Assembly (NCBI GenBank): GCA_964594865.1
Contig: CAZQMZ010000002.1
Coordinates: 1,607-65,606 of the forward strand
DNA length: 64,000 nt
Origin: an uncultured Lachnospiraceae bacterium
Lineage (GTDB): Bacteria > Bacillota > Clostridia > Christensenellales > UBA1242
Reading direction: 5' to 3'
Part shown: piece by piece, positions 2,962 through 47,739 of the stretch
Position numbering within the stretch: the first letter of the stretch is position 1
How the letters are laid out: each line of letters opens with the position of its first letter
Translations under genes and position numbers: made by a program
Notes under the pieces: model-generated
The model's input: only the letters and a program-made list of their open reading frames with translations
Database searches by the model: none
What the model was told of the DNA's origin: nothing

Positions 2962-2988
2962 TTGACATTGCGGGGGGGGTGCTAAAAT
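2962..2988 (+). promoter_or_regulatory. promoter of the TM2-domain gene with a G8 run (2972-2979) in its spacer
   Basis: TTGACA (2962-2967), a 15-nt spacer, then TGcTAAAAT extended -10 (2980-2988). Eight of the spacer bases are G. Confidence 0.5.
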
Positions 2989-3018: not shown

Positions 3019-3528
3019 ATGAAGATCATAAAAATCACTGAAGAAAATGTTTTGATTGGCACTGACGAGGGACAAGTTTTGCAAATGAAAAAACAAGATT
3101 TGGGGTTTGAACCAAAACTTGGTATGGAAGTGGAGAAATATTCTTCGGACAGCGAAATTATCATAACTCCAAAACAGTTTGCGGTTAACGAAGAGCCTAA
3201 ACGCAAGGAAAGCGATGTAAATATGGAAGAAGCTTTGAAAAAAGGGATTGTTGTCAATGTTTCAAACACCAACACCACCGATTTAAGCAACAAATATTCA
3301 GATAATAATACATACGCGCAATCAGGTAAGGTTGTCAACAAATTGGTCTATGTGCTTTTGGCCATCTTCCTTGGTTGGTTTGGCTTGCACAAATTTTATG
3401 CAGGCAAGGCTTCTGGGGTCATTTACTTGCTGTTTTTCTGGACAGGTATTCCGTGCTTTATTTCCTTAATTGAAGGAATTATGGCATGTTTCAAACCATC
3501 AGACAGCAGGGGAAATATTGTCGTCTAG
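3019..3528 (+). CDS. TM2 domain-containing membrane protein
   Basis: C-terminal NKLVYVLLAIFLGWFGLHKFYAGK..GVIYLLFFWTGIPCFISLIEGI is the typical two-helix TM2 pattern. GGAG lies 6 nt before ATG 3019. Confidence 0.7.
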   Translation: MKIIKITEENVLIGTDEGQVLQMKKQDLGFEPKLGMEVEKYSSDSEIIITPKQFAVNEEPKRKESDVNMEEALKKGIVVNVSNTNTTDLSNKYSDNNTYAQSGKVVNKLVYVLLAIFLGWFGLHKFYAGKASGVIYLLFFWTGIPCFISLIEGIMACFKPSDSRGNIVV

Positions 3529-3568: not shown

Positions 3569-4297
3569 TTAAATTTCTGGTTCAAAATTTTCGAAGATGA
3601 CGTTGTCACAATATTTCACCACACGCATATATTCTTTTTTGCTGTCCACAGGCCAGGCAAGCAATGGCAGGTTTTTGAATTTTTTGACAATGCGATTTGG
3701 AAGGGTGGAAGATTCGTAGGCGATGAAATGTGGTTCGCTTACAGTTTTGTTTAGACGCATTCTTTTCAGCAAAAACTTTTTTATCCACGCTAACTTTGTT
3801 CCCTTGAAACTGCCAGAAAGTTGACCGCGGATGATTTGTGGAGCGTGTTTTTTGAAGTAAGCGAGAGAATATGGATTGAAAGACTGAACGGCATATTCAC
3901 CTTTATAATTCTTCAAAAGGTCAATCACAGCTTGCTCAAGTTTGCCAACCTTGTGTTGATTTTTGATTTCAATCAAAATTGGCACTCTGGAATTGACAAA
4001 ATTCAAGACTTCTTGCAGTGTTGGAATGCAGTCTTTTGTTCCACCAAGTTTGAGAGATTTCAAGTCTTCTTTGTTGAGATATTTCAAATATCCATCATTC
4101 CCTGTCATACGTGCGAGAGATTCATCATGAAAAACGGCAACTGTTCCATCGGCAAGAAGATGAACATCAAGTTCAATGGCATAGCCTTTTTCAATGGCAT
4201 TTGCAAATGCCGACATTGAATTTTCAGGCACATTTTTTGTGTGAAAACCACGATGAGCAATTGGTGTTTCCACCAGCCAAGTTTTGAATAAATCCAT
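3569..4297 (-). CDS. glycerophosphodiester phosphodiesterase family protein
   Basis: IAHRGFH..ENSMSAF..GYAIELDVHLLADGTVAVFHDESL motifs. SD AAAGGTGG precedes ATG 4297. Confidence 0.85.
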   Translation of the reverse strand: MDLFKTWLVETPIAHRGFHTKNVPENSMSAFANAIEKGYAIELDVHLLADGTVAVFHDESLARMTGNDGYLKYLNKEDLKSLKLGGTKDCIPTLQEVLNFVNSRVPILIEIKNQHKVGKLEQAVIDLLKNYKGEYAVQSFNPYSLAYFKKHAPQIIRGQLSGSFKGTKLAWIKKFLLKRMRLNKTVSEPHFIAYESSTLPNRIVKKFKNLPLLAWPVDSKKEYMRVVKYCDNVIFENFEPEI

Positions 4298-31181: not shown

Positions 31182-31200
31182 ATAATATGTTTGAAAAAAC

Positions 31201-31230
31201 TTGACAATAAAGTTCACCTAACTATAAAAT
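31201..31230 (+). promoter_or_regulatory. near-consensus promoter of the poly-G cassette locus
   Basis: TTGACA (31201-31206), 16 nt, TATAAA (31223-31228). Confidence 0.6.
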
Positions 31231-31260
31231 TAAATTGTGATTATACAAAAGGAGAAAACT

Positions 31261-31308
31261 ATGACTCAAATTTTGAATTTTGCGGGGGGGGGAGCAAGCG
31301 AACCTTAA
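31261..31308 (+). CDS. 15-codon upstream ORF (MTQILNFAGGGASEP) containing a G9 run
   Basis: Strong SD AAGGAGAA 4 nt before the ATG. The G9 run at 31284-31292 encodes GGG. Confidence 0.3.
   Translation: MTQILNFAGGGASEP
31284..31292 (+). repeat. homopolymeric G9 tract, copy 1
   Basis: Nine consecutive G in an AT-rich genome. Its context GC-G9-AGCAAGCGAACCTTAAAA is shared with copy 2. Confidence 0.95.
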
Positions 31309-31348
31309 AAAATAGACAGGAGACATTTTTCACCTGTGGAGGTGAAAG

Positions 31349-31774
31349 ATGAGATCTTCTGAAATTTCTCCAAATCCATTCGGGGCTCCTTCTTGCAGAA
31401 AATGTCACAGAACTTTGAAAAGACGCGTATCACTTGGCTTTTGGGAGGCTCTTGAAGAGATTATTGCCAGCATTTGCGATCCGTTTCATCGAACTTTATA
31501 TGGTTGCACAGGCACTGTCCCAAATGAAAAGTATGATGTATGGAAAGAAGACTGCAAAAAAATTGACGAAAAGAACAAAAAAATTCGCAGACAAAACATG
31601 GTCAGGCAGTTTATTGGAAGTAAAAAGCCAGAGATTCCATATCCGCCGCGACCACCAAGAAGAGTGCCATGTCCAAATCATTACAAATTGAGGCCATTTG
31701 GAAAATATAATCAAAGAAGCGTCAGAAAAAGAAAGACTTTTTATGATGGTGGTGGAAACATTTATTATATTTGA
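31349..31774 (+). CDS. hypothetical basic Cys/Pro-rich protein (141 aa), ORFan
   Basis: SD GGAGG lies 6 nt before the ATG. CRKC near the N-terminus, PYPPRPPRRVPCP segment. No family recognised. Confidence 0.5.
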   Translation: MRSSEISPNPFGAPSCRKCHRTLKRRVSLGFWEALEEIIASICDPFHRTLYGCTGTVPNEKYDVWKEDCKKIDEKNKKIRRQNMVRQFIGSKKPEIPYPPRPPRRVPCPNHYKLRPFGKYNQRSVRKRKTFYDGGGNIYYI

Positions 31775-31809
31775 TTTTTAAAGTTTGTTTTGAGTTTAAG
31801 GAGAACTTT

Positions 31810-31926
31810 ATGCACAGATGTCCAATATGCAATGAACTTTTGTCACCAGAAATGTTGCCGGTTGGAAAAACGGCGGGGGGGGGAGAAGTAAACTTAAAAT
31901 GGAAAACGTCCTTCCTCAGGTCATAA
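31810..31926 (+). CDS. 38-codon ORF (MHRCPICNELL...) containing a G9 run; probable 5' part of a frameshift-interrupted gene
   Basis: Strong SD AAGGAGAA. The G9 run is at 31875-31883. One additional G joins this frame to ORF 31899-32132. Confidence 0.4.
   Translation: MHRCPICNELLSPEMLPVGKTAGGGEVNLKWKTSFLRS
31875..31883 (+). repeat. homopolymeric G9 tract, copy 2
   Basis: Nine consecutive G in the context GC-G9-AGAAGTAAACTTAAAA. Confidence 0.95.
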
Positions 31927-32132
31927 CTTGGGCGATTGACACCGGAATTCGGGCTTCGATCGGCTCCGGTCGGAGTTTATATTTGACTTGCAACAACTCT
32001 GATTGTCCGGCGTGTTATAGACTCAACAACCCAATATATTTCAAAAACGGAATAGTTACGCCAACCATGGTGGGAGACCCGTTGGGAATTCGAGTGTCAC
32101 TCATGAAATCAAGATTTAAAAAACGAAGATAA
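31899..32132 (+). CDS. hypothetical 77-aa protein with CX5CPAC and a basic tail; probable 3' part of the G9-interrupted gene
   Basis: Open frame without a correctly spaced SD of its own. It is in frame with 31810 if the tract is G10. Confidence 0.45.
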   Translation: MENVLPQVITWAIDTGIRASIGSGRSLYLTCNNSDCPACYRLNNPIYFKNGIVTPTMVGDPLGIRVSLMKSRFKKRR

Positions 32133-32160
32133 ATTGTTTTGAAAAATCATGCAAAAACAC

Positions 32161-32189
32161 TTGACAACGATTGACGAAATGTTTATAAT
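32161..32189 (+). promoter_or_regulatory. consensus sigma-A promoter
   Basis: TTGACA (32161-32166), 17 nt, TATAAT (32184-32189). Confidence 0.8.
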
Positions 32190-32194
32190 ACAAA

Positions 32195-32435
32195 ATGTGT
32201 TTCGTTGTCGGAAACCCATGCTTTGAATGTGTTGGGGCAAAGCCTTGACATTTGAGCATAAACAAACAACAGGTGGCTGTGCTTCAAATGGCATAATTTG
32301 CAGTTTGCAAACTTCCAATTCCACCGATTCAAGAAATTCTTTTCTTGGAGTCATAGAAATATGATTGTGTTGTTCATGTTTGAAAAGATAAAGCATTTTT
32401 CATGGCACGAAATATATCGTGCCTTTTTTGTTTTT
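32195..32435 (+). ncRNA. orphan structured RNA or leader (~240 nt) upstream of rpsL
   Basis: Bounded by the consensus promoter and an intrinsic terminator. At least five hairpins are readable: 32199-32215, 32218-32259, 32272-32325 (with inner 32297-32311), 32326-32352 and 32404-32423. Confidence 0.5.
32404..32435 (+). terminator. intrinsic terminator (possible attenuator) upstream of rpsL
   Basis: GGCACGA / TCGTGCC stem with a 6-nt loop, followed by TTTTTTGTTTTT. Confidence 0.85.
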
Positions 32436-32530
32436 AAACAAATAAGCGAAAGACAAATCGTGACTTCGATTTAAAACTAAGTCAAGTTTGGCAGTTTGTC
32501 AAAAGACAAATGCCTTAAAAGGAGATCGAA

Positions 32531-33695: not shown

Positions 33696-34256
33696 ATGAC
33701 CGTTAGAAATCACCATTTAGATTATTTTATCAATGGATATTTAGACTTGCTAAACGATGACAATATTAAATATATTGCAAAAAAATCAACGGAGATGCAT
33801 TATCCAAAAGAATGGTATGACAGCATGTTCTATGAAATTTTGAATTATGAATATAAAAAAGTTGCTGGATGTATAAAAAGAGTTGATTACAGCAAAAATG
33901 AAAAAATAGTAATGTTAAAAATCATTAAATTGAACAAAAAAACAATGGAAGAGCAGAAGGTGGGTTATGTATCAATAAGCGATTATAATTTACACTTTAC
34001 AAATCTATTAATTAACAATTCGTATAAACAGAATAAAACTTTGATTGCTCAAGATTTTCCAATTATGGAAAGTGATAGTAAAGAAAATTTACATTTCCAA
34101 ACTTCTCAAGAAGAACAAAAACAAGAAGAGATTTCTCAAAATGCTTTTGTTTCTGAAATGACGAGTGCTTTTGGACGAACATATTTGAATGATTATAACA
34201 ATTATATAAACAAAATAAGAACAACACTTGAATTTAATGGTGTAAAAACCAAATAA
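33696..34256 (+). CDS. hypothetical AT-rich ORFan (186 aa) inserted between rpsG and fusA
   Basis: Strong SD AAAGGAGAG. Composition is visibly more AT-rich than the flanking ribosomal genes. No family recognised. Confidence 0.55.
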   Translation: MTVRNHHLDYFINGYLDLLNDDNIKYIAKKSTEMHYPKEWYDSMFYEILNYEYKKVAGCIKRVDYSKNEKIVMLKIIKLNKKTMEEQKVGYVSISDYNLHFTNLLINNSYKQNKTLIAQDFPIMESDSKENLHFQTSQEEQKQEEISQNAFVSEMTSAFGRTYLNDYNNYINKIRTTLEFNGVKTK

Positions 34257-45750: not shown

Positions 45751-47739
45751 ATGAAGAAGAAAAAAAGGTTCCTTTCCCTTTTGTTTTGCTTTATGTTTTT
45801 GTTTTTTGTTGGATGCACAGACGGTGGTTCAAGTGGTTTTTTTGGGGAAGATGTGGATTTAAATCAAATTTCAATGCAGGGCGTGAAGGTTCTTTCCAAA
45901 CCTTCCGACTATGATTTTGCCGATGCGGTGGGTGACTATTCAGAAAATTATTACAATTTGTTTGCCAGAGAAATTTTAGATTTGTTATATAGTGTATATG
46001 AAGATGATAGTGTAACAAATGAAGAAGATGAAAACAAGAGAGAGATAATTTACTCAGATCTTGACACAGGAAGTGGATACACATATTCCAAGGAAGGAAG
46101 CAGTGATGAGCAGATTTATTATCTTTATGACAGTTTGAGATACACAATCTCAAGTGTTGAAGAGGTGTATGATGAGCTTGGTGATCTTGAGGAAATTGTT
46201 GTCACTCTTGACACATCAAGTGCGTGGAATTGGACAATTTTCAATGATGCTGTGGACAAATCAATAATTTTCTTAAATGCGGACTTTGTGACAGATAATA
46301 CAGATAATAAAGATGGTTCATTCATAATGGATGGTTATTATTATTCAGATTGGACCGAAATTTACGATAACCCATTATACCTCCCTTCCTTCTCGGAGTT
46401 CTATACATACGGCGAAAGTGGCAGTGTTTCAATTTCAAATGATAATGTCAATGTTAATTATTGGATTTCGCCTTACTATAACACTGGCTCAAACGGCGAC
46501 GCGGTCAACTATTTTCAAGATGCGTTGGAATATGCGGTCTATTTGTTTGTGTTGGAATATGATCTCACTGAGGATGCCGAATATTTTAATTTTATGATTG
46601 AATATGATGAAGTGACGACTTCTTCCACATATGGTCAAGTGACAGGCATTTCGGTCGGCGGTTGGGGAAATTCATATGTCTCAATCTCTGAGGCGCTTGA
46701 TAACGCCAAAGAACTCTATGACGCTTTGGGTGGATATGTTGGCTTGACTGATGAGAACAAAGAGCAAGTGGAAGAGTTTATCAAAACGGTGATTATTGGT
46801 GAAAAGGCGTATAAGAAAAACACCTTCACAGTGCAGTTCCTTGAGAACAGTGCTGTCACTGAAACGCTGACATTCAATCGCAACTATGACCAAATTATTG
46901 CCAACATCATTGAATACGCTTGCGACAAAGCACCAATTGGCACAAGTTCGGAAGGCACTGTTTTGACATTGGACGAGCCGTTTTTGGCGTCGCAAATCAC
47001 TGACTATGCAGGCAACTATTTTGGAACGTCATACACCGACAATTCGGATGAAAATATGTTTGAGTTTATTCCAGCGGCGGAATATCAAAGCATTGTCATA
47101 TATCCAAATGAAGAAGATTATGGCAAGGTGCTTGGCGATCTTTGGTTGGCGTTTGAATATTATGATGAAGACAATCCAACCGGCGAAGGTTATGGCTCTT
47201 CCATAACAATCAATGTGGGGTTGAGATATTATGATGCCAGTGAGGACGAAACTTATGATTATGTTGTGCTAGGAAAAGAGATTGCATATGAAAAATTGCC
47301 GACAGATAATTCTGCAAGTGATTTTGAAGAAAGATATGAATCTCATTTTGTAACTTTCAGTGACACCGGAACAGGCACAGATTATGCAATTGGCAACAAT
47401 TTTGTTTTAAGCGAGTTCAACAATGACATCGGCAACGGCGCCATAAATCCATATGCGAACGGCACAAGCATTGACAGCGAAAATGAGTATAGGAGTTTGC
47501 TCATTACGGCAAGCAGCAGTGCAAGAGAATATTATATGATCAACAAGTCATCTTCTGGTTATGGTTTTTATGGCACGTTGAACTCTTCGATGTTCTCTGT
47601 TGAAAATGAAAACGTCGGTGAGGACGACGCGTGCGACTATATTGAAATCTATTTTGATATCGTCAAAACAAAAGGCGTGATTCAAAATTATAACTTTAAA
47701 GTTGCCATTGCTCTCATTGCAGCACAAGAATCTGCTTAA
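45751..47739 (+). CDS. large acidic Tyr/Asp-rich lipoprotein, unknown function
   Basis: Signal peptide with lipobox FVGC. 662 aa. No SD; TGaTATCAT lies 6 nt upstream of the ATG. Confidence 0.6.
   Translation: MKKKKRFLSLLFCFMFLFFVGCTDGGSSGFFGEDVDLNQISMQGVKVLSKPSDYDFADAVGDYSENYYNLFAREILDLLYSVYEDDSVTNEEDENKREIIYSDLDTGSGYTYSKEGSSDEQIYYLYDSLRYTISSVEEVYDELGDLEEIVVTLDTSSAWNWTIFNDAVDKSIIFLNADFVTDNTDNKDGSFIMDGYYYSDWTEIYDNPLYLPSFSEFYTYGESGSVSISNDNVNVNYWISPYYNTGSNGDAVNYFQDALEYAVYLFVLEYDLTEDAEYFNFMIEYDEVTTSSTYGQVTGISVGGWGNSYVSISEALDNAKELYDALGGYVGLTDENKEQVEEFIKTVIIGEKAYKKNTFTVQFLENSAVTETLTFNRNYDQIIANIIEYACDKAPIGTSSEGTVLTLDEPFLASQITDYAGNYFGTSYTDNSDENMFEFIPAAEYQSIVIYPNEEDYGKVLGDLWLAFEYYDEDNPTGEGYGSSITINVGLRYYDASEDETYDYVVLGKEIAYEKLPTDNSASDFEERYESHFVTFSDTGTGTDYAIGNNFVLSEFNNDIGNGAINPYANGTSIDSENEYRSLLITASSSAREYYMINKSSSGYGFYGTLNSSMFSVENENVGEDDACDYIEIYFDIVKTKGVIQNYNFKVAIALIAAQESA

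Follow-up and report, generated by a model that had tools for sequence, protein, structure and literature searches.

Between ligA and the str operon of an uncultured Lachnospiraceae bacterium (Christensenellales; UBA1242) lie two small gene cassettes, each of which contains a run of nine guanines (G9) at which a reading frame falls one nucleotide short, and the question raised by this locus is what such runs are doing there. The locus was studied within a window, that is, the whole stretch of 64,000 nucleotides (nt) analysed here, which corresponds to positions 1,607-65,606 of the forward strand of contig CAZQMZ010000002.1 (assembly GCA_964594865.1). Cassette 1 comprises a short leader open reading frame (ORF) followed by a gene for a basic protein of 141 amino acids (aa), and cassette 2 is written as two overlapping ORFs of 38 codons and 77 aa. 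The coordinates of the runs and of these four ORFs, given by an original prediction, were all reproduced on re-reading the window, and both runs are uninterrupted in the sequence (run 1 in cassette 1 and run 2 in cassette 2; Table 1). The explanation that we favour, with a rough probability of 0.55, is slipped-strand phase variation at both of these G9-gated small genes.

Poly-G runs and the split gene of cassette 2

The G runs of the window are not a product of chance. Apart from the two G9 runs, the sole G/C run of at least 6 nt in the 64 kb is a G8, in agreement with the earlier statement that long G runs are otherwise absent save at 2972. Compared with first-order Markov simulations, three G/C runs of at least 8 nt are observed where 0.14 are expected (0 of 300 simulations reach three), none of length 6-7 against 3.8 expected, and five of length 5 against about 17, the next lengths being 8, 9, and 9. 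The run-length distribution is therefore bimodal. Matches to G7 are likewise over-represented relative to composition, with 8 observed versus 0.83 by chance and 0 of 100 shuffles giving as many. All three long runs sit at expression-controlling positions; both G9 runs and the G8 are uninterrupted homopolymers of the length (at least about 7-8 nt) and placement typical of phase-variable loci, close to the 5′ end of an ORF in the case of the G9 runs and inside a promoter in that of the G8. On the plus strand, no C run of at least 6 nt occurs and all three long runs are of G. The two G9 runs are in the same codon phase, GCG GGG GGG GGA, and their contexts are alike, with 72% ungapped identity over 25 nt, which bears out the common context proposed before. 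The effects on the frames were computed by rebuilding the sequence with 7-11 Gs per run. The rebuilt sequences showed both of the effects on which the original prediction rested, each cassette being one G away from an ON-like frame.

In cassette 2, translation of the sequence as written would yield an ORF of 38 codons (31810-31926), and a run of G10 (or G7) fuses it to the 77-aa ORF to give a protein of 107 aa (or 106 aa). The 107-aa fusion is 57-64% identical over 96% of its length to intact, single-ORF proteins of 113-115 aa, the genes of which lie directly 3′ of ligA and 5′ of rpsL-rpsG-fusA-tuf, the same slot as in the window. Six more cassette 2 loci, all intact and right after ligA, were found in DNA scans of species-representative genomes and Joint Genome Institute (JGI) metagenomes; the genomes of the orthologues are labelled as uncultured Catabacter, Clostridiales, and Clostridia. 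None of eight related loci with a gene between ligA and rpsL has a poly-G run, and the corresponding site reads GGAACAGAACCAGGTGAAAAG or similar. Across the shift point, the fusion can be aligned without any gap to two of the orthologues (P0007 and P0008) and to another 14 members of the family. Only 16 clusters of this family, all of them spanning both halves, came out of an exhaustive profile search of 1.84 billion representative proteins; the 14 entered in the family alignment (A4) align from one half into the other, with C4, P5, C7, E14, R55, C61, and C66 invariant and the Cys pattern CPxC...Cx4CPxC invariant or near-invariant. Residues C4, P5, and C7 fall in the 5′ segment and C61 and C66 in the 3′ segment; as invariant Cys residues thus flank the shift, neither half alone could form the putative four-Cys site.

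Judging from these alignments, cassette 2 is a conserved gene split by its G9, and the frame with one additional G (+1G) is the ancestral one. The earlier claim that G10 gives a four-Cys fusion of ~107 aa is thus sustained by intact orthologues that align from end to end, and a change of one unit toggles between a truncated and a full-length frame here as in the G10 leaders of three species described below. On the other hand, the 77-aa ORF had to be given up as a gene of its own, because its ATG corresponds to an internal Met of the family and family members span both halves; in the sequence, no Shine-Dalgarno (SD) motif precedes this ATG at 31899. Exact look-up of the 107-, 106-, 77-, and 38-aa products in the protein collection returned none of them. 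Gene callers miss the split gene, which has never been called in any assembly and so marks an annotation blind spot. For the 107-aa protein, AlphaFold2 (AF2) gave no usable model, the predicted local distance difference test score (pLDDT) being 36. A pairing of run 2 with CCUUCCUC, which had also been proposed, is present in the minimum free energy fold, but this fold is no better than those of shuffled sequences (z = -0.26) and the pairing was rejected.

Both proteins were compared with known families. Neither of them matches the curated libraries Pfam, PHROGs, NCBIfam, and PADLOC; profile searches of the PDB gave only generic CxxC similarity, and no curated zinc-ribbon profile or solved structure in Pfam, NCBIfam, or PDB was matched at threshold. 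Relatives of neither family were found in viral contigs. The earlier view that the ORFs belong to no family therefore holds for the curated libraries and fails in that both proteins belong to small, conserved, uncharacterised families. A kinship between the two families was considered and rejected, as the profile-profile comparison shows only the CxxC knuckle. One might guess that either of these small, basic, Cys-rich proteins binds zinc or nucleic acid.

The leader, the hairpin, and the 141-aa gene of cassette 1

The near-consensus promoter that had been placed at 31201 scores 11/12 in a consensus scan, its -10 element being TAAAAT ending at 31230. From this promoter to the end of cassette 2, no terminator-like sites were found save weak matches within ORFs. 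The leader ORF has 15 codons as written with G9. With G10 it becomes 30 codons long, and its TGA (31350-31352) overlaps the ATG of the 141-aa gene in an ATGA arrangement, as foreseen in the original prediction and confirmed by the frame rebuild; with G7 it has 29 codons. A hairpin in front of the 141-aa gene pairs both its SD motif, GGAGGTGA, and its ATG, and the local fold, at -20.4 kcal/mol, is more stable than those of shuffled sequences (z = -3.3). The G9 leader ends at 31308, which leaves 16 nt to the 12-base-pair stem and 10 nt to the first position (31318) of the predicted helix in its extended form. The predicted anatomy of an occluded start, with a stem over SD and AUG, a leader that crosses it, and a stop/start overlap, is thus complete only in the +1G frame. 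Such a sequestering hairpin provides a reason why the frame of the leader would matter, and from the familiar behaviour of arrangements of this kind we infer that translation of the leader may open the hairpin and couple initiation of the downstream gene to it.

The same design recurs in relatives of the 141-aa gene. A search of 5.8 billion proteins yielded 10 clusters of the family, with 54-68% identity and all of 140-142 aa. Their neighbours vary, for example polA/lgt in one locus (L004) and leuS in another (L005), and in L006, the one locus with a cassette 2 orthologue in which the end of ligA is covered, cassette 2 follows ligA without an intervening 141-aa gene, so that cassette 1 is to be seen as an addition in the genome of the window. 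In terms of gene neighbourhood, then, cassette 1 is a small mobile module found at different sites in different genomes. Locus L004 has a promoter, an SD motif, and a leader MIKLNICAGGGF with G9 ahead of its stop codon, and L008 has a leader MAKCLVYKENLRNVVYIGKVKEKSGGG, again with G9 and a stop; both leaders are preceded by strong SDs, and in both, G10 is the only length at which the leader ends in a stop overlapping the start codon (ATG) of the 140/142-aa gene. In L009 the run is interrupted (GGGGAGGGG) and the upstream ORF is continuous into the ATGA overlap, so that this locus looks like a locked, in-frame version of the leader. With the recurrence of G9 and the ATGA overlap in two other species and this locked ORF in a relative, the +1G frame is supported as ancestral for cassette 1 as well. 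L010 has a G8 run, its contig beginning 7 nt 5′ of the run, and L005 is without a comparable leader. Across species, the cassette 1 run therefore reads G9, G9, G9, G8, and one interrupted form. Hairpins that would sequester the SD, with different 5′ arms, are predicted in L004 (-15.6 kcal/mol), L009 (-21.1 kcal/mol), and L005 (-13.3 kcal/mol). The majority of the family members, among them those of L008, L009, L010, and P0026-P0029, are found on very short contigs of 0.6-2.5 kb, perhaps owing to low abundance or to assemblies that break off at heterogeneous runs. In the AF2 model of the 141-aa protein, which is fairly confident (pLDDT 80), a Cys knuckle at the N-terminus, a long helix (residues 60-86), and a PPxPP stretch can be seen, and no fold match was found for it in PDB or BFVD.

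The leader itself appears to be derived from cassette 2. The leader of L008 can be aligned, as DNA and as protein, to the start of the cassette 2 gene (MAKCLVYK... versus MAKCPVCK...), the leaders of the window and L004 resemble shortened versions of it, and the +1G frame of the leader keeps the similarity a few codons further (SKRTLKN versus RSKLKME). The leader ORF probably arose, therefore, as a degenerate copy of the sequence that encodes the N-terminal part of cassette 2, and this paralogy would explain the context of ~25-30 nt that is common to the two runs. The earlier proposal of paralogous modules can thus be retained for the 5′ parts and not for the 141-aa and 77-aa parts, which are unrelated by profile-profile comparison. 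Because the two runs share the codon phase GCG GGG GGG GGA, conversion of cassette 2 by cassette 1, which lies 590 nt upstream, is a plausible origin of run 2. Two short direct repeats with 71-79% identity (31190-31250 versus 32138-32195), ~946 nt apart, flank both cassettes; they could represent either a similarity between the promoters of cassette 1 and rpsL or a trace of island insertion.

Switching, recoding, decay, or artefact

Runs of the same kind were found at further positions where they could control expression. The G8 of the window occupies the spacer of a promoter upstream of a gene for a TM2-domain membrane protein; the consensus scan misses this promoter because its spacer is only 15 nt long. 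The exact 169-aa TM2 product is also recorded from SRR7039263, and in that strain (L021) the run is a G9 plus one more base, giving a 17-nt spacer in front of a TATAAT -10 box, so that the two strains differ by G8 versus G9 in a promoter-spacer run. A second case is provided by GCA_964400145.1 (L017), whose RpsL and RpsG proteins are identical to those of the window and whose DNA is 94% identical. The ligA-rpsL slot of this genome contains neither cassette and has instead a gene (608-1993) for a 461-aa membrane-anchored protein with DUF285/leucine-rich repeats (LRR; BspA-like), in the promoter spacer of which a C9 run is located (413-446; TTGCCT-t-C9-gcatgc-TACAAT). The slot is therefore a variable island. 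As these promoter-spacer runs are upstream of the start of transcription, they can act only through DNA length, and the lineage seems to make habitual use of poly-G switches.

On the explanation by slipped-strand phase variation, the region would form one transcription unit of two small genes, read from the promoter at 31201, each gated by a hypermutable G9 whose length would change by slipped-strand mispairing at replication. At gate 2, which is of the classical design, a G9 would end translation after 38 codons and part the CPxC knuckle from the CNNxxCPxC knuckle, and a G10 or G7 would give the full protein of ~107 aa with its four-Cys, zinc-ribbon-like pattern and basic tail. At gate 1, where the control would be indirect, a ribosome on the G9 leader would halt at 31308, leaving the hairpin closed and the 141-aa gene off or low; with G10 the ribosome would cross the hairpin, end at the ATGA, open the initiation site, and couple translation, which would turn the gene on.

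The original prediction had likened the cassettes to contingency loci, and this comparison gains support from the promoter-spacer runs, the bimodal run lengths, the hairpin, and the recurring design of cassette 1, together with the ancestral +1G frames. In Campylobacter jejuni, poly-G/C tracts have a modal length of nine, with G8 mutating mainly by insertion and G11 by deletion (PMC3401435), and a mode of G9 is therefore not odd for such loci. Several observations weigh against the switch. Run 2 is G9 in the window and in five Logan assemblies of separate sequencing runs (SRR7039256, 57, 59, 60, and 63), and run 1 is G9 in the window and in the three of these five that reach it; no length variation was thus seen at either run, in assemblies that match the window at 100% identity over both cassettes and represent one haplotype from one run series. 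As to tract length among relatives, which the original prediction had asked to be compared, this haplotype is uniform, the cassette 1 run reads G8 in L010 and is interrupted in L009, and at the promoter run two strains read G8 and G9. Furthermore, the four related tracts in three species (both cassettes of the window, L004, and L008) share precisely the length G9 and the need for a +1 shift; tracts that drift freely would hardly be expected to agree so well, and a fixed signal would account for it. Among 15 billion predicted proteins there is no copy of the ON product, whether of 107 or of 106 aa, the closest genome lacks cassette 2, which is hence dispensable, and no SD hairpin is predicted in L008 or L010, so that four of six loci, including that of the window, have one.

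A signal of fixed length could operate by programmed recoding, either by slippage of RNA polymerase or by -1 ribosomal frameshifting on G GGG GGG, which would set the ratio of short to long product without any change of DNA. Such recoding is to be taken seriously as a rival, and it would be in line with the uniform length and shift of the four tracts and with the invariance of G9 in all assemblies of the window haplotype; moreover, G GGG GGG formally conforms to X XXY YYZ in the zero frame, GC[G GGG GGG] GGA, in both cassettes, and GGG is the rarest Gly codon (9.5%), the decoding of which may be slow. We nevertheless consider it unlikely, since neither run has a stimulatory structure or an internal SD suitably spaced from it: downstream of run 2 the fold is the one with z = -0.26, and the cassette 1 hairpin starts about 26-32 nt after run 1. 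The frame transition is kept in cassette 1 of three species and not in L009, whose interrupted, in-frame run departs from a fixed pattern as does the G8 of L010, and the eight cassette 2 orthologues are unshifted and need no shift. The promoter-spacer runs cannot work by recoding at all, their only plausible effect being at the DNA level. The known transcriptional slippage sites of bacteria are coding-strand runs of A or T, about 9 nt or longer, whereas the runs here are of G, and G runs form stable RNA:DNA hybrids and slip poorly. G runs are not known as slippage sites in bacteria, and a G-only heptamer is not among the known efficient -1 frameshift sites. It is distinctly improbable, then, that G9 is the first bacterial case of programmed slippage on a G homopolymer, setting product ratios in small zinc-ribbon-type genes of uncultured Clostridia and metering the 141-aa protein through the leader and hairpin.

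The dispensability of cassette 2 gives some room to simple decay, in which cassette 2 was killed recently by a frameshift, the leader of cassette 1 is an ordinary upstream ORF, and the runs are leftovers, copied from one of the neighbouring paralogous 5′ ends to the other, without a switching role. That no ON allele is on record agrees with this account, and the match of run 2 in phase and ~25 nt of context to cassette 1, 590 nt upstream, is compatible with the copying by gene conversion that it would involve. However, the shift is the only lesion in the cassette 2 gene, which keeps every invariant residue of the family, and an unselected G9 should erode fast, whereas the cassette 1 run persists in three species next to proteins that are 55-68% identical. 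The bimodal run lengths and the expression-controlling positions of all three long runs also speak against leftovers, and we regard decay as quite unlikely. An error of sequencing or assembly, with true runs of G10 and both genes intact, is suggested by the facts that homopolymers of 9-10 nt are classic sites of miscalls and that both runs are short by exactly one base. This is very improbable indeed, as the window and the Logan assemblies of five runs, made with a different pipeline, agree on G9 (three of them also at run 1), and two other species, assembled independently, likewise have a G9 that leaves the leader out of frame. Neither run interrupts the Logan contigs that cross it, and 26 long housekeeping ORFs, 39.7 kb in total, are intact in the window; A/T homopolymers are a weak control of assembly quality here, with only 2 of 40 runs in long ORFs. 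Phase variation by slipped-strand mispairing thus remains the reading that we prefer. The original prediction is borne out for the most part in its anatomy and is plausible in its mechanism, whereas length variation at runs 1 and 2, by which a contingency locus is defined, was not observed in the assemblies of this haplotype.

Table 1. Features of the two-cassette locus and of the promoter with the G8 run, in window coordinates.
Feature	Position	Strand	Remarks
Promoter with G8 (2972-2979) in its spacer	2962-2988	+	TTGACA, 15 nt, TGcTAAAAT; upstream of TM2-domain gene
169-aa TM2-domain membrane protein gene	3019-3528	+	Pfam TM2, E = 4e-15; downstream of G8 promoter
Promoter of the two-cassette unit	31201-31230	+	TTGACA, 18-nt spacer, TAAAAT; consensus scan 11/12
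Shine-Dalgarno AAGGAG of leader ORF	31249-31254	+	6 nt before ATG 31261; read from sequence
Leader ORF as written (G9), MTQILNFAGGGASEP and stop	31261-31308	+	15 codons; ORF list and frame rebuild
G9 run 1	31284-31292	+	Leader codons 8-11, GCG GGG GGG GGA
Hairpin	31324-31351	+	Arms 31324-31335 and 31340-31351, 4-nt loop; repeat search: 12 nt, 92% complementary
Gene of 141-aa basic, Cys/Pro-rich protein	31349-31774	+	Small conserved uncharacterised family
Shine-Dalgarno AAGGAG of cassette 2 gene	31798-31803	+	6 nt before ATG 31810; read from sequence
Cassette 2 gene, 5′ segment (CPxC knuckle to Gly loop)	31810-31883	+	Aligns with orthologue residues 1-25
G9 run 2	31875-31883	+	Codons 22-25, GCG GGG GGG GGA; variable Gly/Lys loop of family
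Cassette 2 gene, 3′ segment (RSKLKMEN...CNNSDCPAC...KKRR and stop)	31884-32132	+	Frame reached with one extra G; 77-aa ORF 31899-32132 is its tail

Some further observations concern the surroundings of the cassettes. A perfect 12/12 promoter (32161-32189) is followed by a leader of ~340 nt before rpsL (region 32161-32530), which contains a strong terminator-like hairpin with a T-run (32404-32423), has no Rfam match, and is 91-94% conserved in L017; this region may be an attenuator or a small RNA. Two sub-threshold Rfam matches in the rpsL promoter/leader region were judged not credible. The whole window (1-64000) contains no tRNA gene and no Rfam family at the gathering threshold, a search that includes ribosomal-protein leaders, T-boxes, and riboswitches. 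The Logan strain (L001, L018, L019, and L020) is identical to the window up to 32826 and then 93.6% identical in rpsG, which points to a probable recombination breakpoint inside or after rpsL in that strain. Within the str operon, a 186-aa ORF without a family match is located between rpsG and fusA (33696-34256), and the annotation of L017 has a gene of 186 aa at the corresponding place (3666-4226). In addition, a 662-aa ORF at 45751-47739 has no Pfam match at E ≤ 1e-5.

Comparison with known systems

Homopolymer contingency loci are textbook knowledge for a few Gram-negative pathogens and mycoplasmas, and they are hardly documented in uncultured commensal Clostridia. The present locus resembles the known poly-G loci in its uninterrupted G8-9 runs near the 5′ ends of ORFs in an AT-rich genome, in the toggling between full-length and truncated products by one G, in the bimodality of run lengths, with runs confined to non-housekeeping genes, and in the modal length of 9 (PMC3401435). 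It differs from them in its host, an uncultured Clostridia lineage of Gram-positive type, in its gated products, which are tiny Cys-rich basic proteins rather than surface-modifying enzymes, and in that no length heterogeneity was seen at runs 1 and 2. Together with the promoter-spacer runs nearby and in the sister genome, the locus suggests a whole 'phasome' in this lineage. It also draws attention to two tiny conserved families for which random expression is apparently of use to the cell, and this offers a handle on their function.

Repeats in promoter spacers act as switches in Neisseria porA/opc (poly-G/C), Mycoplasma hyorhinis vlp (poly-A), and Haemophilus hif (TA repeats). The G8 of the window and the C9 of L017 are similarly placed between -35 and -10 elements, and the spacer is 15 versus 17 nt in two strains; unlike in those switches, the promoters here are predicted, and the likeness concerns neighbouring loci and not the two cassettes. 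Genes with programmed frameshifting or slippage, such as dnaX, the IS3/IS630 transposases, and Shigella mxiE, use A/T-rich sites. What the cassettes have in common with them is a homopolymer at a frame transition, kept in cassette 1 of three species, with the same tract length in several species, whereas the runs here are of G, lack a stimulatory structure or SD at a defined distance, and are found beside cassette 2 orthologues that are unshifted.

A hairpin-occluded SD that is opened by upstream ribosomes, with an ATGA overlap, is known from the MS2 coat/replicase pair and from many bacterial operons. In cassette 1, the predicted hairpin likewise pairs the SD and AUG of the 141-aa gene, and the long-frame leader would cross it and stop on the ATGA. 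The difference is that access of the upstream ribosome to the hairpin would depend on the length of a mutable homopolymer, a combination of homopolymer-gated leader and SD hairpin of which no description was found in a literature search. By this design, a single mutable base could switch an intact downstream gene while its coding sequence stays undamaged. Overall, the locus would work like a homopolymer phase-variation switch with an unusual leader-ORF/hairpin variant, and it is not categorically new.

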